Shown here piece by piece: positions 5,705 through 53,090 of a stretch of DNA of 64,000 nt. The position numbers and the translations under genes are program-made. Source of the DNA: Candidatus Kaelpia imicola (GTDB taxonomy: Bacteria > Omnitrophota > Gorgyraeia > Kaelpiales > Kaelpiaceae); the NCBI GenBank assembly GCA_030765505.1, contig JAVCCL010000043.1, positions 5,686 to 69,685 on the forward strand. The letters run 5' to 3'. The notes beneath the pieces were generated by a model that saw only the letters and a list, made by a program, of their open reading frames with translations, searched no databases and was not told the DNA's origin. The stretch's first letter is position 1. Every line of letters begins with the position of its first letter.

Positions 5705-7063
5705 ATGAAGAAGTTATTAATTATTGCAGCGCTTATGATGTTGGCTATGCCAGCATTTGCAGCTGTACAGAATGTAAAAGTAAGTGGTGATATCACTACT
5801 TATGGAGTAGGTCAGTATGTGTTTGATTTAGATGACAGAAGTACTGACATTGAAGGTGGTGCGGGTGACGAAGAAAATTTCTTTGCCACAATTACTCGTT
5901 TAAGAGTAGATGCAGATTTAACAGATAATGTTGCAGCTACAGTTAGACTTGTAAATGAAAGAGAGTGGGATACGCAATATTGTAGCAGTGGAGATACTAC
6001 TGATGCAATCATGGACCTTGCTTATATAACTTTAAAGGAGATATTCTATTCTCCTTTAACAGTTATGATAGGCCGTCAAGAGCTTGCATACGGCAGCAAA
6101 CTTGTTGTCGGTGATCCTAACACAAATGCAGTTAAATCGTCAGATAGTGATTTAACAAATGCTCCTTATCTGAGCAAAATTAAATCGTTTGATGCTATCC
6201 GCGGTGTGCTTGATTATGATCCTTGGACAATCGATCTTGTCTATGCAAAAATTGATGAGGCATTTGAAGCAGCAAGCACAGAGGATGAAGATATTCTCGG
6301 TATAAATTTTGCTTATGATTTTGCTGACTATGAAGCAGAAGCAGAAGGTTATTTCTTCTACGTTGATGGCGATCCAGAAGCTTCTTACTCATCAAGCGAA
6401 GCAAATATCGATGGTTATGTTCTTGGTTTAAGAGGCAGCTTAGCCCCTGTTGATGGTTTAACAGTTGGTGCAGAGATTGCTATCCAGGGTGGAGACTATG
6501 CTAATGGTCCTGCTGTAACCAATAGAGACCTTGATGCTATGGCAGCAACAGTGGAAGGTTCATATGTTTGGGATAATGAATATGCTCCTATGATTAAACT
6601 TTGTTATGACTATAGATCTGGTGAGAAAGCAGGAACATCAAGCGGTGATTATGAAGCGTGGTTACCTCTCTATGAAGATCAGACCAAAGGTTTGATTGCT
6701 GATTATTTATTTAGCGGTGCAAATGCTGGTGTGAATTCAAACTCAAACATCATAAACCTCGGTGGTTCTTTTCAACCGACGGAAGATTTAACAATTGCAC
6801 TTGACTGGTTCCATTATATTTTAGATGAGAAACTTACATCTTCTAATGACCAGTCGTATTCTAGCTGGTCACCAGTCGGTTCAGTTACTATAGATAGTGA
6901 AGATGATCTTGGTGATGAAATCGACCTTGCTTTAATCTATGATTATACAGAAGATGTTGTCATAGGTTTACAGGCTGGTTGGTTTATGCCGGGTGATGTA
7001 TTTGATGCTACAAACAACGATGATGCATATGAACTGCTTGGTTCTATAGCAGTTAGTTTCTAA
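5705..7063 (+). CDS. outer-membrane beta-barrel protein (porin-like), strongly acidic
   Basis: The signal peptide MKKLLIIAALMMLAMPAFA is followed by AVQ, and the protein ends in the aromatic residue F (AVSF). It shows the alternating beta-strand pattern of an outer-membrane barrel. A strong ribosome-binding site (AGGAGGAAAG) is present. Its codon usage (CGT, GGT, GAT rich) differs from neighbouring genes, consistent with high expression. Confidence 0.6.
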   Translation: MKKLLIIAALMMLAMPAFAAVQNVKVSGDITTYGVGQYVFDLDDRSTDIEGGAGDEENFFATITRLRVDADLTDNVAATVRLVNEREWDTQYCSSGDTTDAIMDLAYITLKEIFYSPLTVMIGRQELAYGSKLVVGDPNTNAVKSSDSDLTNAPYLSKIKSFDAIRGVLDYDPWTIDLVYAKIDEAFEAASTEDEDILGINFAYDFADYEAEAEGYFFYVDGDPEASYSSSEANIDGYVLGLRGSLAPVDGLTVGAEIAIQGGDYANGPAVTNRDLDAMAATVEGSYVWDNEYAPMIKLCYDYRSGEKAGTSSGDYEAWLPLYEDQTKGLIADYLFSGANAGVNSNSNIINLGGSFQPTEDLTIALDWFHYILDEKLTSSNDQSYSSWSPVGSVTIDSEDDLGDEIDLALIYDYTEDVVIGLQAGWFMPGDVFDATNNDDAYELLGSIAVSF

Positions 7064-7084
7064 AAGTTATTTAGTTTGGTTTTT

Positions 7085-7120
7085 AAAACCCCCGTAGATT
7101 TTTACGGGGGTTTTTCTTTT
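7085..7120 (+). terminator. rho-independent terminator (CCCCCGTA / TACGGGGG stem followed by a T-run)
   Basis: A perfect 8-bp GC-rich stem spans 7089-7096 and 7103-7110 with a GATTTT loop, followed by TTTTTCTTTT. An A-run sits on the 5' side, so the element could terminate in either direction. Confidence 0.8.
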
Positions 7121-7401
7121 TAAGTTGTTTTTTCCTTTTTCAGCTTGATTTAGTAGTCCTGAATATTTAGTTTTCAATATTAAATATTAAGGGTTAAATA
7201 TAGCTATAAAATTGAAGTAGATGGTATTAGGAAAATTATTTTAAAAGTAGTCAAGATCTTTTCAGCAATTAGTGTATATGGAGTGTTAAAATACTCAGAA
7301 AAGATTAAAAAACTAAAAAGAATGTTGTCTTCTGCTATAAAAGAGAAAACTAAAGAACTTGAATGTAAAAGTATCCATAATTCTTGATGAGGTATAATGA
7401 A

Positions 7402-7605
7402 ATGCATATAAAAATTATTTTAGAACCGAGTGAAGAAGGTGGTTATACGGCTATAGTTCCTGCTCTCCCTGGATGTATAAGTGAAGGCGATACGCGGGAA
7501 GAAGCTTTAAAAAACATTCGTGAAGCAATAGAACTTTATTTAGAACCGGCAGCTGATGATGCTATCTTTGCTCCCAATTCTGAACAAGTAGAAATTACAG
7601 TATGA
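7402..7605 (+). CDS. hicB: HicB-family antitoxin (UPF0150/RNase H-like fold)
   Basis: MHIKIILEPSEEGGYTAIVPALPGCISEGDTREEALKNIREAIELYLE is the classic HicB N-domain pattern. The start is probably the ATG at 7402; the ORF track begins at an upstream TTG at 7384. A TATAAT hexamer sits at 7392-7397, directly before this ATG. Confidence 0.75.
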   Translation: MHIKIILEPSEEGGYTAIVPALPGCISEGDTREEALKNIREAIELYLEPAADDAIFAPNSEQVEITV

Positions 7606-7829
7606 GCAAAGTTCCAAGTGTAAATTACTCTCAGCTTATCAATGCTCTGCGGCGGGACGGGTGGATAGTAATTCGCTAAAAAGGCAGTCATATCAGATTA
7701 CAAAAACGTCTTCCTGATGAAATGCTTAAAATTACTATTCCTGCTCATCATCCAATTAAAAGATCAACGCTCTCGCATATATTAAAACAGGCACATTTAT
7801 CTGTAGAAAAAATTATTGAATTATTATAA
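7602..7829 (+). pseudogene. hicA: hicA toxin gene interrupted by one in-frame TAA at 7677-7679
   Basis: The ATG overlaps the hicB stop (ATGA). The translation MSKVPSVNYSQLINALRRDGWIVIR-stop-KGSHIRLQKRLPDEMLKITIPAHHPIKRSTLSHILKQAHLSVEKIIELL matches the HicA consensus (GW.v.R.KGSH...PvH.gkdl..gtL..ILKQAgL). The stop sits exactly where the conserved Gln codon (CAA) would be. Confidence 0.7.
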
Positions 7830-7971
7830 AAATTTTTCATGAGTCAATAGATCTGACTTTTTCCTATTGCTCTATTCCGGAAAAAACAGCAAAAAAGAGA
7901 AAAAACTGTTGCTATCTAATTAATAAAAGGTGTTATTTCTACTTTGCTATTACAGTATTTTTCAGGCTAGG

Positions 7972-7999
7972 TTGACTTTCTATGTTTCTTAGCTATAAT
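7972..7999 (+). promoter_or_regulatory. consensus promoter (TTGACT, 16-nt spacer, TATAAT) driving tRNA-Leu
   Basis: The -35 lies at 7972-7977 and the -10 at 7994-7999, about 15 nt upstream of the mature tRNA 5' end. Confidence 0.55.
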
Positions 8000-8014
8000 A
8001 GATTCTTCCCATGA

Positions 8015-8098
8015 GCCGGGATGGCGGAATTGGCAGACGCGCATGGTTAAGGACCATGTGGGCTAACGCTTGTGGGGGTTCAAGTCCCCCTCCCGGCA
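8015..8098 (+). tRNA. tRNA-Leu, class II (long variable arm), anticodon reads AAG
   Basis: The acceptor stem is GCCGGGA/TCCCGGC, the anticodon stem CATGG/CCATG and the 7-nt loop TTAAGGA (positions 34-36 = AAG at 8049-8051). The T-arm is GGGGG-TTCAAGT-CCCCC. CCA is not encoded. The fold is identical to the second tRNA-Leu in the window except for the anticodon. Confidence 0.8.
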
Positions 8099-9028
8099 TT
8101 AATCCCTTCTATCTATTGCGTAGTTGCTTCCAGGGAGTGTTTTGGTGTACTCTTTTACTTCAGCCCCTCTCTCGGCTACTTCTGCAACGTGTTTGAACTC
8201 TATATTATTGTTAGTTATAACAGATACAGTTACAGACATTAAAGGAACATTCTCTTTATTTCCTTTTCTATCTTTTGATTCTATGTAGCCTTTTTCTCTA
8301 TCTTTTTTAGGGTAGTAACGGGGTATCTTGGAGTCAAACTTCTTTATAACTGATTTAGATATCTCTTTTGCCCTCTCAGCATCTGCTATTATTACAAAGT
8401 CATCTCCTCCGACATGGCCTATAAAATCATTTTTTTGGCCTATCTCATCTACTGTCTCAATAAGTACGCGGGCGGTCTCCTGGATGATTCTATCACCTTT
8501 TTCAAATCCGTATTTATCATTATAGGATTTAAACTTATCTAAATCGACATAGCAGACTGCAAATTTGTTTTCTGATTTTATTCTGCTCTCAATCTCATTT
8601 AATATTGTTACATTACCGGGTAAGCGGGTTAAGGGGTTGGCATCAAGGTCTATCTCGGCGCGTCTTAAGACCATCTTGACGCGGGCAATTAATTCTTTCT
8701 CATCTGTGGTTTTGACTATATAGTCATCGGCTCCTGCATCTATTCCTTTTATCTTATCAGTTACATCTTCTTTTTTACCTGTAAGCATTATTACAGGGAT
8801 GTGGCGTAAGAGCAGGTCTCTCTTTATGAAGCGGCAGAGTCTCTCACCGTCGACTTCAGGCATAACATAGTCTGTTATAACCAGGTCAGGCGGTCTGTGA
8901 TGGATTTTATCTATGGCTTCTTTTCCATTAGAGGCTTCTTCAACTTCAAAGCCTTCTGATTTAAACAGTATCGTTAAGACATCTCTTATATCAGCATCAT
9001 CATCTACGACTAAAATTCTCTTAGCCAT
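8099..9028 (-). CDS. response regulator: REC domain plus a GGDEF-family domain with a degenerate GGDDF signature
   Basis: The N-terminal RILVVDDDADIRDVL...DLVITDYVMPEVDG block is a receiver domain. The C-terminal VDLDKFKSYNDKYGFEKGD...HVGGDDFVII block is a GGDEF fold. Its stop codon abuts the tRNA 3' end on the opposite strand. Confidence 0.8.
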   Translation of the reverse strand: MAKRILVVDDDADIRDVLTILFKSEGFEVEEASNGKEAIDKIHHRPPDLVITDYVMPEVDGERLCRFIKRDLLLRHIPVIMLTGKKEDVTDKIKGIDAGADDYIVKTTDEKELIARVKMVLRRAEIDLDANPLTRLPGNVTILNEIESRIKSENKFAVCYVDLDKFKSYNDKYGFEKGDRIIQETARVLIETVDEIGQKNDFIGHVGGDDFVIIADAERAKEISKSVIKKFDSKIPRYYPKKDREKGYIESKDRKGNKENVPLMSVTVSVITNNNIEFKHVAEVAERGAEVKEYTKTLPGSNYAIDRRD

Positions 9029-47476: not shown

Positions 47477-47946
47477 TAAGGAATATTTTTTTTATTTTAA
47501 TATTTTTATTATTGTTATATCCTTTTAAAGAGGTTTACTCTCAAGAAAAAGAATCAAGGCTGAGAAATCCTTTTTTAACATCCGAAGAAGAGATGAAAAT
47601 ACTTGGAATTAAACCTACTAAAGCGAAAGGCCGGAAGATTATTCCTTTAGAGAAGCTCAATCTTTCCGGAATCATATATGGAGAAAAAAAAATCGCTATA
47701 ATTAACTCTGAGTTTTACAACGAAGGTGATCTGATAGGAAATTTTACCATTAAAAAGATAGAGCCTTTGAGCGTAATTTTAAATACAGAGAGACGTGAAT
47801 ACGAACTCAAGCTCAAGCATGTTTTGGCTGCAGTAAAAGAGCCTAAAGAGGATCTGGAAAAAGAGACGGTCAAAGAGAAAGAGGATGTTAGCAGGGAAGA
47901 GTGGTCTGATGATATAATTGAGCAATTGCTTGGAGCAACGGAATGA
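47473..47946 (+). CDS. PilP/GspC-HR-domain protein (secretin N0-binding partner)
   Basis: It has an N-terminal membrane anchor. The C-terminal beta-domain LSGIIYGEKKIAIINSEFYNEGDLIGNFTIKKIEPLSVIL matches the PilP/GspC homology region. It overlaps the secretin start by 4 nt. Confidence 0.55.
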   Translation: MIRNIFFILIFLLLLYPFKEVYSQEKESRLRNPFLTSEEEMKILGIKPTKAKGRKIIPLEKLNLSGIIYGEKKIAIINSEFYNEGDLIGNFTIKKIEPLSVILNTERREYELKLKHVLAAVKEPKEDLEKETVKEKEDVSREEWSDDIIEQLLGATE

Positions 47947-50900
47947 TTAGAAATATAATATATTTTCTATCTCTGCTTTCATTGTTAATATTCCCTCCTA
48001 TATTAAATGCTCAGATAGCTTCTGACTTGATGGATGATGATGGTGTGTCTGACAAGCTTACCAAGAACATAAAGATTGAACAGAAAGCCGGCAATCTATA
48101 CAACGTCGAGTTTAGAAATGCGGATATTAAAGATATTATAAGATATTTTGCCCATGAGTATGGACTCAATATTATAGCCGACAAAGATGTTGAAGGTACT
48201 GTTACTGCAAGTCTTGGCAATGTTACCATAAAGCAGGCTTTGGGCCAGATTCTTGATTCTCAGAATTATACTATGATTGAAATAGATAATGTGATTCGTG
48301 TTAAAGCAAAGCTTTCTCCTGTTACGACTTTTAAGCTTCACAATGTTTCAGCCGCAGATATATCAGATAACATGGTTTCTCTTTTGGGGTCAGAAGGCAA
48401 GATGGTTATTGATGAGGTAACCAACTCTATCATGGTGACCGATAGTGATGATAATATTAATATAATGAGGAATTTTATTGAAGGTGTTGATGTAAAAGGG
48501 AGGCAGGTCTTGATAGAAACAAAGTTTGTTGAGACTACCCTGAATACTTCAAAGAATCTCGGCGTAGAGTGGGGGACCACAATTACTGTTCAAGGTGCAG
48601 CCCGGCCGCATACTTTTCCTTTTGGCTCTACAGGTGATAAGTATGCCTTTGGTAATGAAAATGCGCAGATTGGAACAGACGAGGAAGAGAGAAGTAATAT
48701 TGCCGGTTTTCCTGTTGCTGGTAGCGGGGAGTATACATTCGGTACTCTTGATTTTGCACAATTCAAGGCAGTCTTAAAAGCACTTCTAACTGATGACGAT
48801 ACCAAGATTATCTCCAATCCTCAGGTTGCAACATTAAATAATAGACTGGCTACGATAGGTGTCACGACAGAGTATCCTCTTCCTACTTATGAGGTTGATA
48901 GCAGTACCGGGGAGTTGACCGTATCCGGTTATGAATATAAAAATATTGGAATTACACTCAATGTTACCCCTTTTATTGCAAGCGATGATTATATAACTAT
49001 GACTATAGAGCCGACAGTAGGTACTGTGGGTGAGACGATTAGCGTTGGAGATACCGGGTTTAAGCTTCCCATAATAAGTTCTAAAACCGCCACTACGAAA
49101 GTGACTATAAAGAACGGAGAGACTATTGTAATAGGCGGTCTTATCAGTACCGAAAAGATAAAGTCCACGACCAAAGTGCCTCTGTTGGGCAGCATACCTC
49201 TTTTAGGTAAGCTTTTTTCTTATGAGGGGACTAGTGACTATAGCTCAGAACTTTTAATATTTGTTACGCCTCACATTCTTAACCTTGAAGGAGACGAAGA
49301 GCTCAAGAGGGAAAAGATAGATGAGCTATACGAAGATATAGATAGGTTGATGTTTGATGAAGACTACGGGGCTGTTATATCTAAGGTTGACGAGATTTTA
49401 GAGTTAGACAAAGGAGAAGAGAGAGCTAAAGATTTAAAGGTTAAAGCCGAAGAGAATATCAAGCAGAAAGAGAAAGAGGAAGAGGGGAAGGCGGAAGAGA
49501 GAGAGGCATTTTTGAGATCCCTTTGGAGGGAGGCCAATAGTCTCTATGCAGGGGGGGAGTATCAGCAGGCAAAGGATAAGTATATCTATATTCTGGCAGA
49601 GAGCCCTGATGATAAGATGGCGGTTAAAATGCTCAAGAGGTCTCAGGAAAAGGTAGAGGCTATTAAGGAAAACGATTTGTACTCACTTATCAGAGAAGGC
49701 AAATCTTATTATAGAGAGAATGATTTTAATAAAGCTCTGGCCTCTTTTAGAGAAGCTTTAGTTATAGATCCTACAAACAGAGCTATTTCAAATTATATAG
49801 TTGATATTGAATTAAAGTTAACCCAGGAAGAATTAGGTAAGGTTGAGAAGCCGCTTGAAGAGATAGAGAGAGAGAAGAGAGTCCAATCTCTCTGGGAGGA
49901 GGCGAATAGTTTTTATGCAGCTATGAATTATGAGGGAGCCCGTAATATCTATACTCGGATACTCGCTTTAGAGTCTGACAATAAATCTGCCATGGATATG
50001 CTTAAGAGATCCGAAGAGAAGATAGGACAGCAATTGAGCGAGAGAGCATCCGCTCTCCTTCTTAGCGCTGAGAAGTCTTTTAGGAAGAGAGAGTATTCTC
50101 AGGCTTTAGAGAGTTACTATAGTGTTCTTCAAATAGACCCTGATAATGAAGATGCAGAACTTGGTATTACCGAACTGAACAAATATATTCAGGAGAGAGA
50201 AGAAGATAAGCAGGTTGCCTTGGATCTTAATAGGGCTTTAAAACTATATCAGGGCGGTAGTTATAGCGAAGCAAAGTTTGTATTAGATAAGATACTTAGT
50301 AAGAGACCTGATAATGAAGAGGCTTCTAAATATAGAAGGCTGTCTATCCAAAAGATAAATAAAGATAAAGATATAGCTCAGCTCTGGGAGGAAGCAAATA
50401 GATATTATACTGCCAGGGATTATGAAAGAGCCCTTGATATCTATACCCAGATACTTGCGTTAGAGCCTGACAGCAGGTCTGCTATGGATATGCTTGATAG
50501 ATGCGAGGATAAGCTAAAAGTTGAGAAAGACGAAGTACTTAGTTCTCTGCTTGTTAAGGCTAGAAAATCTTCGAGGAAGAAGGATTATACGGGGGCTTTA
50601 AGCTATTTTGAAAAGGTTCTTGAGATTGATCCCGGTAATAGAGAGGCGGATAGTGAGATAGTTGAGATTCAAGGATTGATAGAACAGGAGACTTTTAAAA
50701 AGAGTCTGGATAAAGCTCTGCTGAGTGCTAAGAGTCTATATAAACAGGGCAGCTTTAAGGAGGCTAAGATTATATTAAACGGAATCATAGAGAAGAGCCC
50801 AGAGAACAGAGAGGCCTTGGGATATCTTGAGCTCTGCTCGCTTAAGATAGCCAAAGAGAAAAAAACGGCTTTATTATGGCAAGAGGCTGATACTCTTTTT

Positions 50901-53090
50901 TCTAAAGGTGATTATGGGTTGGCGCGTCAAAAGTATGCTCAGATTCTCTCTATAGATTCAGGTGGGAAGGTAGCTTTGGTTAAAATAAATAAATGTGAGG
51001 AGAAGCTTGAGAAGGCAGAAGAGCGGAAGATAGCTGCTTTACTTACTTCAGGTAGGATTGAGTATAAGAGAAAAGAATATTTGAAAGCACTGGAACGCTT
51101 TGAAAAGGTTTTAAAGTTAGACCCTGCTAATCAGGATGCGGTAACTGAGATGATAAAAGTGGAGAACGCGCTTAAAGAGCAGAGCTGGCCTCAAGAAGAA
51201 AAATTAGATTCTGCTGATTTAAGGTCTAAGATTGCTGAGAGTGAAAGAGCGAGTCAGCTCTGGGAGGAAGCCAACAAGCTATATGCTGAAAGAGCATATC
51301 TTAAGGCGCTTAAGAAGTATGCTAGCATTGTAACTATTGAACCTGAAAATCAGTCTGCTCTTGAGATGCTGAATAGATGCGAAGATAAGATTGAGATTAA
51401 AAGGAGTAGAGAGGTTTCATCTCTTTTAGTTATGGGCGAGAAGGCAAGGAGGAGCGGCAATTACGATAAGGCACTGGAGTATTTTGAACGAGTTTTAGAG
51501 TTGGAGCCTGCCAATAAAGAGGCTGATGGTAAAATTCTGGAGATAGCCTTGCAAAAGGATGGTAAAAGAGGGGCTAAGAAGAAGAGCCTTGAATTGGCTA
51601 AAAGAGAGAGCAAGGAAGAGGAGCTGAAGATCTTATGGGAAGAAGCAAACATGTATTACAGTCAGAAAGATTTTAAGTCTGCCTGGGATAAATATGCCGA
51701 CATTCTCTCTCTTGACCCAGAAGATAAGATTGCCAATGATATGCTTAATAGATGCGAGGATAGGCTCTATGAGACTAAAGTAAAAGAGATCTCATCCTTG
51801 CTTCTATCTGCCTCAAGAGAGTTTCGTAATAAAAATTATGATAGAGCTCTTAAATATTATCAGGATGTTCTTCAGATAGACCCTGACAGCAAAGAAGCAA
51901 GAAGGAGTATAGAGGATATCTATAAGAGTATGAGGTCTCTTGAGATGGCAGAGAGGGTTAAAGGCGATCTGGTTAAAGCGAAATCTCTTTATAGTAAAGG
52001 AAGGTTTAAAGAAGCGGAGATCATGTTGGATGAGTTATTAAAATTAGATTCTAAAAATAGAGAGATTCAGAAGTATCTTACTTTGACAATCGAGGCTATA
52101 AGGCAAAAACAGGATTTAAAAAATTTCTGGGAGGAAGCCAATAGTCTCTATGCCGAGGGAGAGTATGAGTTAGCCTGGAGGAAGTATAGCGATATTCTTG
52201 TAATTGACTCTAACGATGAAGTTGCTCGTCAGATGGTCAAAAAGTGCCGGAGTAAGATCCAGCAGTATAATATAAAAGAGATTTCGGCTTTACTCTCTGC
52301 AGGAGAGAAATATTTAGTTAAAGGCGAGAATCAGAAGGCATTGAATTACTTTATGAGAGTTTTAGAGTTGGACCCTGCCAATAAAGGGGCGGAAGAGAAT
52401 ATCTCCAAAATAAAAGATAGTCTTAGGGCTGAAGAGATAGAGCCTTATAAGGGCAAAAGAGAAAAAGAGATAGGTGCATTATATCTAAGCGGTGTTAAAA
52501 ATTATGATAAGGCTGATTATGATAAGGCTATATATCTTTTTGAGAAGGTTTTAATAGCTGATCCTACTCATGAGAATGCATATCGATATTTAGAGATGGC
52601 CCATAAGAGAAAGAGTATGGCTGAGAGTGAAGTTGCAGTAGAGGTTGATTTCAAAACAGCTGTTGAGGATGTTATCTCTATAGAAGATATATTAGAAGAG
52701 AAGAGTTTGACAGAAAAAGAGATAAGAGAGTTATATAGAGGAGCAGTAAGATTATACAAGAAGAAGGAGTATCAGAAGGCCTTGGATAAATTTAGATCTT
52801 TATCTCAATTAGACTCCAAATATCAAAAGGCATCCAAGAAAAAGATCAAGGCATGTTTGGAAAAGATAAGAAAACCACTTCCCTTGGATAAAGTTGAAGA
52901 GAAGTACCAGCTTGGCTTGGATTACTTTAAAAAAGATCTCTACAAGAAGAGTATTCAGCTTTTCTTAGAGGTGTTGGACTTAAAGCCTAAATATAAAGAT
53001 GCCAGAAAGTATCTTAAGTTATCAAGGGATAGGCTTCAGATGATGGACTCACTTGGTGATTTCGAGCAGGCTGCTATTGAGGATAAATGA
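47943..53090 (+). CDS. secretin (GspD/PilQ family) with a ~1240-aa C-terminal extension of TPR-like repeats
   Basis: The N-terminal part carries a signal peptide and an N0 domain (FRNADIKDIIRYFAHEYGLNII). An N1 domain (FKLHNVSAADISDNMVSLLG...VTDSDDNINIMRNFIEGVD) follows. The secretin core ends in the canonical VPLLGSIPLLGKLF...ELLIFVTPHIL at about aa 445. The remainder is a degenerate repeat array: LWEEANxxYxxxxYxxAxxxYxxILxLxPxxxxAxxMLxRCEDK alternating with SLLxxxxxxxxxxxYxxALxYFxxVLxxDPxNxEA units, at least 16 TPR-like units in all. Confidence 0.85.
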   Translation: MIRNIIYFLSLLSLLIFPPILNAQIASDLMDDDGVSDKLTKNIKIEQKAGNLYNVEFRNADIKDIIRYFAHEYGLNIIADKDVEGTVTASLGNVTIKQALGQILDSQNYTMIEIDNVIRVKAKLSPVTTFKLHNVSAADISDNMVSLLGSEGKMVIDEVTNSIMVTDSDDNINIMRNFIEGVDVKGRQVLIETKFVETTLNTSKNLGVEWGTTITVQGAARPHTFPFGSTGDKYAFGNENAQIGTDEEERSNIAGFPVAGSGEYTFGTLDFAQFKAVLKALLTDDDTKIISNPQVATLNNRLATIGVTTEYPLPTYEVDSSTGELTVSGYEYKNIGITLNVTPFIASDDYITMTIEPTVGTVGETISVGDTGFKLPIISSKTATTKVTIKNGETIVIGGLISTEKIKSTTKVPLLGSIPLLGKLFSYEGTSDYSSELLIFVTPHILNLEGDEELKREKIDELYEDIDRLMFDEDYGAVISKVDEILELDKGEERAKDLKVKAEENIKQKEKEEEGKAEEREAFLRSLWREANSLYAGGEYQQAKDKYIYILAESPDDKMAVKMLKRSQEKVEAIKENDLYSLIREGKSYYRENDFNKALASFREALVIDPTNRAISNYIVDIELKLTQEELGKVEKPLEEIEREKRVQSLWEEANSFYAAMNYEGARNIYTRILALESDNKSAMDMLKRSEEKIGQQLSERASALLLSAEKSFRKREYSQALESYYSVLQIDPDNEDAELGITELNKYIQEREEDKQVALDLNRALKLYQGGSYSEAKFVLDKILSKRPDNEEASKYRRLSIQKINKDKDIAQLWEEANRYYTARDYERALDIYTQILALEPDSRSAMDMLDRCEDKLKVEKDEVLSSLLVKARKSSRKKDYTGALSYFEKVLEIDPGNREADSEIVEIQGLIEQETFKKSLDKALLSAKSLYKQGSFKEAKIILNGIIEKSPENREALGYLELCSLKIAKEKKTALLWQEADTLFSKGDYGLARQKYAQILSIDSGGKVALVKINKCEEKLEKAEERKIAALLTSGRIEYKRKEYLKALERFEKVLKLDPANQDAVTEMIKVENALKEQSWPQEEKLDSADLRSKIAESERASQLWEEANKLYAERAYLKALKKYASIVTIEPENQSALEMLNRCEDKIEIKRSREVSSLLVMGEKARRSGNYDKALEYFERVLELEPANKEADGKILEIALQKDGKRGAKKKSLELAKRESKEEELKILWEEANMYYSQKDFKSAWDKYADILSLDPEDKIANDMLNRCEDRLYETKVKEISSLLLSASREFRNKNYDRALKYYQDVLQIDPDSKEARRSIEDIYKSMRSLEMAERVKGDLVKAKSLYSKGRFKEAEIMLDELLKLDSKNREIQKYLTLTIEAIRQKQDLKNFWEEANSLYAEGEYELAWRKYSDILVIDSNDEVARQMVKKCRSKIQQYNIKEISALLSAGEKYLVKGENQKALNYFMRVLELDPANKGAEENISKIKDSLRAEEIEPYKGKREKEIGALYLSGVKNYDKADYDKAIYLFEKVLIADPTHENAYRYLEMAHKRKSMAESEVAVEVDFKTAVEDVISIEDILEEKSLTEKEIRELYRGAVRLYKKKEYQKALDKFRSLSQLDSKYQKASKKKIKACLEKIRKPLPLDKVEEKYQLGLDYFKKDLYKKSIQLFLEVLDLKPKYKDARKYLKLSRDRLQMMDSLGDFEQAAIEDK
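49380..53060 (+). repeat. intragenic array of degenerate ~34-aa TPR-like repeats in ~130-aa super-repeats (at least 9 LWEEAN-type units) within the secretin gene
   Basis: The recurring protein motifs are LWEEAN, ILALEPD and MLNRCEDK. Recurring DNA strings include ctctgggaggaagc and agatgcgagga. Confidence 0.8.

Follow-up and report, generated by a model that had tools for sequence, protein, structure and literature searches.

A hicBA toxin-antitoxin cassette of probable horizontal origin, with a single nonsense codon in hicA, upstream of a tRNA-Leu gene in Candidatus Kaelpia imicola

Candidatus Kaelpia imicola is a member of the Omnitrophota described from Ace Lake, Antarctica (PMC8542988). 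The stretch of its DNA analysed here (64 kb, referred to as the window) contains an intact hicB antitoxin gene followed by a hicA toxin reading frame that is interrupted by an in-frame TAA. The pair lies between the intrinsic terminator of a porin gene and the promoter of a tRNA-Leu(AAG) gene, which agrees with the placement given in the preliminary description of the locus. The features are listed below by window coordinates.

5705..7063, plus strand: alginate-export-family outer-membrane porin gene, ending in TAA (Pfam PF13372, E 5e-25), with a product 100% identical to an NCBI entry for the Candidatus Kaelpia imicola MAG; its orthologues flank the empty sites described below
7085..7114, plus strand: intrinsic terminator of the porin gene, a 13-pair stem with 6 GC pairs and a T run after it; left edge of the conserved flank
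about 7153..7923, no strand assigned: lineage-specific 771-bp segment carrying hicBA, delimited by approximate blastn break points
7402..7605, plus strand: hicB antitoxin gene, 67 aa, intact (PF15919 match)
7602..7829, plus strand: hicA toxin pseudogene, 75 codons (PF07927 match with codon 26 taken as Gln)
7677..7679, plus strand: presumed inactivating TAA, hicA codon 26, with CAA (Gln) as the ancestral codon and C>T at 7677
7972..7999, plus strand: tRNA-Leu promoter, TTGACT-16 nt-TATAAT, 11/12 consensus matches; part of the right-hand conserved flank
8015..8098, plus strand: tRNA-Leu(AAG) gene (ARAGORN; Rfam tRNA, 54 bits)
8099..9028, minus strand: response-regulator gene with a GGDEF domain (PF00072 and PF00990), with orthologues in 80 Omnitrophota loci

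The largest ORF of the window (1715 aa) lies elsewhere, at 47943-53090.

The start of hicB was assigned to the ATG at 7402, which has GAGG ahead of it and is common to the homologues; the ORF list had used a TTG at 7384. The resulting 67-aa product, entered at NCBI as MDP8216963.1 (HicB family antitoxin, Ca. Kaelpia imicola), matched the Pfam family HicB_lk_antitox PF15919 with an E value of 4e-13 (49.9 bits, cut-off 27), and its residues 9-49 resembled the N-terminal domain of solved HicB (PDB 6g1c/6g1n; E 9e-4 to 2e-3). No HTH, RHH or Phd domain was matched in this protein by Pfam, and a promoter-like site looked for upstream of hicB was not found. The start codon of hicA overlaps the hicB stop by 4 bp in the sequence ATGA (7602-7605), and from the adjacency of the two genes and this overlap we infer that HicB would neutralise the cognate HicA. 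Translation of 7602-7829 gave MSKVPSVNYSQLINALRRDGWIVIR*KGSHIRLQ...IIELL*, with the TAA at 7677-7679 as the sole internal stop. When codon 26 was repaired to Gln, the 75-aa sequence aligned with practically the whole of the Pfam profile HicA_toxin PF07927 (positions 2-58 of 58; E 7e-16, 58.5 bits, cut-off 27), and the part that follows the stop was still matched by the same profile when taken alone (E 8e-4). The preliminary description had called this a HicA-family frame intact over 75 codons apart from one stop, next to a retained antitoxin gene, and each of these points held. Its reading frame being interrupted, the gene was recorded as a hicA pseudogene and not as a functional member of the family.

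A recent survey defined Class 2 hicBA as modules in which hicB stands before hicA and encodes a HicB that is 63-103 codons long and lacks a DNA-binding domain, and found this class to be one of the two most prevalent hicA contexts (Gerdes 2024, mBio 15:e03293-23, PMC10865869). Because hicB precedes hicA and the 67-aa HicB has no DNA-binding domain, the cassette of the window is, on gene order and domain content, a Class 2 hicBA. It resembles this class further in a HicB consisting only of the partial RNase-H-like fold, in a HicA of about 75 aa, and in the gene overlap with its translational coupling; unlike Class 2 modules, its hicA has a nonsense codon and it is therefore not a working module. 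The same comparison can be extended to the classical HicAB systems of E. coli, Burkholderia pseudomallei and Streptococcus pneumoniae (6g26, 4c26, 5yrz), with which the window HicA shares the dsRBD-like family and the G-S-H catalytic loop, at weak sequence likeness to the solved classical chains, and the window HicB shares the N-terminal domain. In contrast to the classical systems, the gene order is reversed in the window, and the C-terminal HTH/RHH DNA-binding domain that serves autoregulation in classical HicB is missing from the window HicB. With a point-mutated toxin gene and an intact antitoxin gene, the locus is also similar to the toxin-first decay of chromosomal toxin-antitoxin (TA) loci that gives rise to orphan antitoxins.

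The position of the stop relative to the catalytic loop was derived from alignment with HicA proteins of known structure. The PDB searched with the single HicA sequence returned no match; a profile of the subfamily gave weak but consistent matches to solved HicA chains (E 0.1-0.2), in which G28-S29-H30 aligned with G22-S23-H24 of B. pseudomallei HicA (PDB 4c26/6g26) and the KGSH found in the HicA of Streptococcus pneumoniae (5yrz) likewise aligned with the loop. The G22C and H24A substitutions each abolish the toxicity of B. pseudomallei HicA (PMC3969222). The TAA at codon 26 stands four codons upstream of the G-S-H loop and leaves K27-G28-S29-H30 in frame but untranslated, and the sole in-frame restart, ATG 7722 (Met-41), is located downstream of the loop. 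Since the stop precedes the loop and the Met-41 restart follows it, a product with the complete fold and the catalytic loop would be impossible, and from homology with the mutagenised HicA we infer that toxicity would be lost.

Homologues were used to characterise the change at codon 26. A search of 5.8 billion proteins with HicA yielded 2980 homologues, the best 120 of which were intact, had identities of 97% or less and measured 75 aa save one of 84 aa. Q26 was present in 30/30 aligned close homologues, inside an invariant R-Q-K-G-S-H block, and the nearest cassettes by DNA, designated L082 and L083 (93% and 87% identical, respectively), both had CAA at this codon, reading CGT CAA AAA GGT against CGC TAA AAA GGC in the window. 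As judged by this comparison, the event is a single C>T transition that converted CAA to TAA with loss of Gln-26. The window hicA differs from L082, its nearest intact copy, synonymously at 16 codons and non-synonymously at 3, with the stop counted among the 3, and the remaining two replacements (S10 and H50) were also found in intact homologues. The few non-synonymous changes indicate that hicA was therefore under purifying selection for nearly all of its divergence, and because of this excess of synonymous over non-synonymous differences the hicA knockout is dated as recent. With no damage to hicA other than one stop codon, the decay is caught very early. These results bear out the earlier proposal of a recent single-hit CAA-to-TAA change that replaced the Gln of the R-Q-KGSH block; its authors had also considered that the same in-frame TAA might recur in hicA homologues of relatives, which was the case for none of the 30.

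We compared the locus with its counterparts in related genomes to define the insertion site. The porin terminator hairpin was also found 3' of the porin gene in Ca. Saelkia tenebricola (L003), Ca. Kaelpia aquatica (L092) and a JGI contig (L095), and the tRNA-Leu promoter was also present in L003 and L092. By blastn, window positions 7000-7152 corresponded to L092 5254-5405 (85%) and positions 7924-8150 to L092 5472-5696 (89%); the 771 bp between them (7153-7923), in which hicBA is preceded by an AT-rich leader (about 26% GC) and followed by a short trailer, had no counterpart in Ca. Kaelpia aquatica L092, where a 66-bp spacer occupies this place. The distance from the porin stop to the response-regulator stop was 1036 bp in the window, 328 bp in L092 and 290 bp in L095, and in Ca. 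Saelkia tenebricola about 13 nt separate the terminator from the tRNA promoter. The hicBA-free arrangement of porin, terminator, short spacer, promoter and tRNA-Leu(AAG) was found in four related genomes, the empty-site relatives being Ca. Saelkia tenebricola (L003), Ca. Kaelpia aquatica (L092-L094) and the JGI contig (L095), so that the synteny comparison recommended in the preliminary description came out in favour of an insertion.

The right-hand flank of the locus proved to be old in its arrangement: the gene block that encodes the GGDEF response regulator, a histidine kinase and FIST was conserved across 80 Omnitrophota loci (L002-L081), and tRNA-Leu directly followed the orthologous response-regulator gene in 46 of the 66 that were usable. 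This convergent GGDEF regulator/tRNA-Leu pair carried the anticodon AAG in the Kaelpia/Saelkia group and GAG in more distant genomes, suggesting that the anticodon switched, or the tRNA was replaced, at a fixed locus. The closest species representative was Omnitrophota MAG STD1_183 (L002), with a response regulator 80% identical to that of the window. There, the spot equivalent to hicBA, upstream of tRNA-Leu(aag) (L002:3608-3688), is taken by a 319-aa ORF (L002:3833-4792, minus in the locus orientation) whose product combines an IS200-like Y1 transposase domain (PF01797, E 5e-9) with an HTH at its C-terminus. Three related genomes with three different states indicate that the spot upstream of tRNA-Leu is variable. 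Other TA-like genes were observed a few kb upstream in Ca. Kaelpia aquatica, as a hipBA-like trio (HTH, Couple_hipA, HipA_C; L092:1-1340), and in the JGI contig, as a 79-aa ORF paired with a PIN-domain gene (VapBC-like; L095:1216-1864), in both cases near the GlnRS gene; neither set was present in the window. Immediately after the porin terminator, at 7111-7140, the window also has ~16 extra bases (ctttttAAGTTGTTTTTTCctttttcagc) compared with Ca. Kaelpia aquatica L092:5365-5385 (ctttttcagc), an excess that resembles a minor duplication of local sequence or a slippage event within a T-rich stretch.

Arginine codon usage set hicBA apart from its surroundings, with CGN at 6/8 positions compared to a background of 20% CGN and 80% AGA/AGG in 53 ORFs (Fisher p = 0.0013). 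The bias noted in the preliminary description was thus confirmed; its count of 5 of 6 codons and its statement that surrounding genes use AGA/AGG almost exclusively were not. HicA proteins at least 80% identical to that of the window were found in MAGs labelled Omnitrophota, Planctomycetota, Deltaproteobacteria and Cyanobacteria. Because of the atypical Arg codons, the near-identical cassettes under several phylum labels and the empty sites in the four related genomes, we favour horizontal acquisition of hicBA, as had been proposed before. DNA likeness to other hicBA loci was confined to 7389-7832, the edges of the operon, and the neighbouring genes at those loci were unrelated.

The 75-aa HicA subfamily was unusually conserved (about 80-97%) across phylum labels (proteins P0006, P0016, P0042, P0054, P0058, P0069 and P0071), which suggests that the cassette spreads rapidly between phyla. 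Intact, near-identical hicBA copies were observed near defence-type genes, namely HEPN_AbiU2 together with a STAND/AAA NTPase in L083-L086 (L083:515-3577) and a HepT-like toxin in L082 (L082:178-1166), and these neighbours are in keeping with the anti-phage setting that has been proposed for HicA modules. Viral contigs scanned with the CAA/TAA hicA pattern gave no match, and a viral origin of the cassette was rejected on this ground.

Taken together, these data lead us to assign a probability of roughly 0.86 to the interpretation that the locus is a decaying type II hicBA, acquired horizontally on the 771-bp segment, with hicA dead by one recent C>T and hicB intact. In the Candidatus Kaelpia imicola lineage, the segment with hicBA would have entered the spacer that separates the porin terminator from the promoter of tRNA-Leu(AAG), and a later C>T would have turned the Gln-26 codon (CAA) of hicA into TAA. 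Translation would then halt after 25 residues, short of the Gly-Ser-His loop that HicA needs for RNA cleavage, and a Met-41 restart product would be equally devoid of this loop, leaving a dead toxin beside an intact antitoxin gene. A decaying TA pair is expected to lose its toxin first, since prior loss of the antitoxin harms the cell. The persistence of hicB would thus be explained because the toxin-first order is by itself harmless and too little time has passed since the stop arose.

The alternative that survives best, although we give it only about one chance in ten by our own estimate, is that selection maintains hicB as an orphan antitoxin, the loss of the toxin being adaptive domestication instead of neutral decay. 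An orphan HicB might neutralise HicA from other genomic hicBA copies, from incoming mobile elements or from phages, in a role of anti-addiction or immunity. The hicB gene is fully intact and differs from L082 by 1 non-synonymous and 10 synonymous codon differences; the subfamily is widespread and highly conserved across several phyla, which makes encounters with near-identical toxins plausible; and the related cassettes lie beside the HEPN_AbiU2, STAND NTPase and HepT genes described above. However, given how recently the stop arose, hicB should be intact even if no selection acts on it, no further hicA or hicB copy was found within the 64-kb window, and the upstream region of hicB yielded no promoter-like site. 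A more specific version, to which we give slightly less weight still, would have the TAA allele itself selected, with an expressed orphan HicB conferring immunity against the near-identical HicA that circulates across phyla in the lake on mobile elements or phages; the allele would then be either fixed or polymorphic with CAA.

The preliminary description had suggested that the pair may be what is left of an element that integrated at the tRNA gene, and a larger integrase-mediated island targeting tRNA-Leu, of which hicBA would be the last remainder, was weighed against simple cassette decay. The location of hicBA next to a tRNA gene, the variability of the site, with the IS200-like Y1 transposase and its HTH domain at the equivalent spot in L002, and the atypical codon usage of hicBA are all compatible with this view. 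Integrases that target tRNA genes insert at the tRNA 3' end, but the 771-bp segment lies 5' of the tRNA-Leu promoter, and the tRNA 3' end was matched only by the two tRNA-Leu genes of the window, with no attL/attR direct repeat of it bounding the insert. No tyrosine or serine integrase, remnant of one, or other recombinase was detected by Pfam within about 7 kb on either side. The neighbouring genes over these distances are housekeeping: upstream, a GDSL-lipase-like gene (below cut-off), GlnRS, a TPR protein, a 148-aa ORF without Pfam match and the porin; downstream, the response regulator with GGDEF, a histidine kinase, FIST, an O-antigen ligase and a T2SS ATPase. ORFs in the flanks of the insert were without significant Pfam match, and six-frame translation combined with Pfam gave no significant coding remnants there. 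The unrelated neighbours of other hicBA loci and the end of DNA likeness at the operon borders likewise argue against a larger island. Taking the absence of integrase and att remnants with the position of the segment, we abandoned the suggested tRNA-integrated element, which we regard as improbable, at odds of around one in twenty.

A search for target-site duplications and terminal repeats at the segment was also without a convincing result, and only low-complexity T-rich/A-rich inverted repeats and chance-level direct repeats were seen. The imperfect, low-complexity inverted repeat 7111-7135 / 7879-7903 (76% complementary) is probably due to chance. A 7-nt repeat, TA[A/G]GTTG (7121-7127 and 7968-7974), was considered as a candidate and dropped, as it falls off the blastn break points. 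Among non-coding RNAs, Rfam identified in 6900-8300 the tRNA only; weak sRNA matches corresponded to the porin terminator and scored below the gathering scores.

Marginally less probable than the tRNA-targeted island is a sequencing or assembly error at the TAA, or a minority variant that was made consensus, in which case the true hicA would be intact. The source is a metagenome-assembled genome and the call at 7677 is a consensus base. The Gln-26 version did not occur in a collection of 15 billion proteins, whose gene index likewise lacks the flanking genes of the contig, so that this absence is uninformative. Against an error, a separately assembled ENA contig (L001; ERZ27315452, k141_538435, 682 bp) was 100% identical to window 7175-7856, TAA included; this contig is only partly independent, as it may share the lake, and even some reads, with the source MAG. 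Moreover, the change is a base substitution and not a homopolymer-length error, and short-read assemblies seldom have a wrong base substituted in their consensus. Heterogeneity of the population at 7677 may exist. Both ends of the ENA contig (7175 and 7856) were observed to fall within the 771-bp segment, and its left end adjoins an AT-rich near-palindrome (7158-7174 / 7176-7192); these breaks could reflect an assembly-graph effect or strain variation at the borders.

Least of all, at a probability we consider close to negligible, might the TAA be read through or recoded, by programmed readthrough, a suppressor tRNA or codon reassignment, to provide low, regulated amounts of full-length toxin: the pristine remainder of the hicA frame and the location of the stop exactly at the conserved Gln codon, Gln being the residue most often inserted at UAA/UAG by near-cognate or suppressor tRNAs, would suit such a mechanism, but an in-frame stop occurred in 0/30 aligned close homologues, TAA is the commonest true stop of the window (TAA 25, TAG 17, TGA 11 in 53 long ORFs) and terminates the adjacent porin gene, whose C-terminus is conserved in relatives, the tRNAs of the window (Leu, Leu and Pro) include no suppressor, and Rfam detected no known recoding elements in 6900-8300. 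A degenerate DNA pattern of the TAA allele also matched 0 JGI metagenome contigs, compared to 5 for a control that accepted CAA as well, a comparison of low power. Reassignment or readthrough of the stop codon was rejected on the stop usage, the Q26 of the homologues and the lack of TAA-allele contigs, consistent with the earlier opinion that it was the less likely explanation.

The preferred interpretation of a horizontally acquired hicBA in decay thus calls for no new mechanism and follows the ordinary route of TA cassette decay. Apart from correct annotation of the locus, its value is small and lies in a clean and datable case, in the genome of an uncultured member of the Omnitrophota, of a Class 2 hicBA that was acquired horizontally and is decaying toxin first. 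Relatives in that lake with an empty site demonstrate that the cassette is an insertion. The CAA and TAA alleles could act as a population-genetic marker in the Ace Lake time series. For the family as a whole, the locus would add a small data point on a very conserved hicBA subfamily that appears to move promiscuously between phyla.
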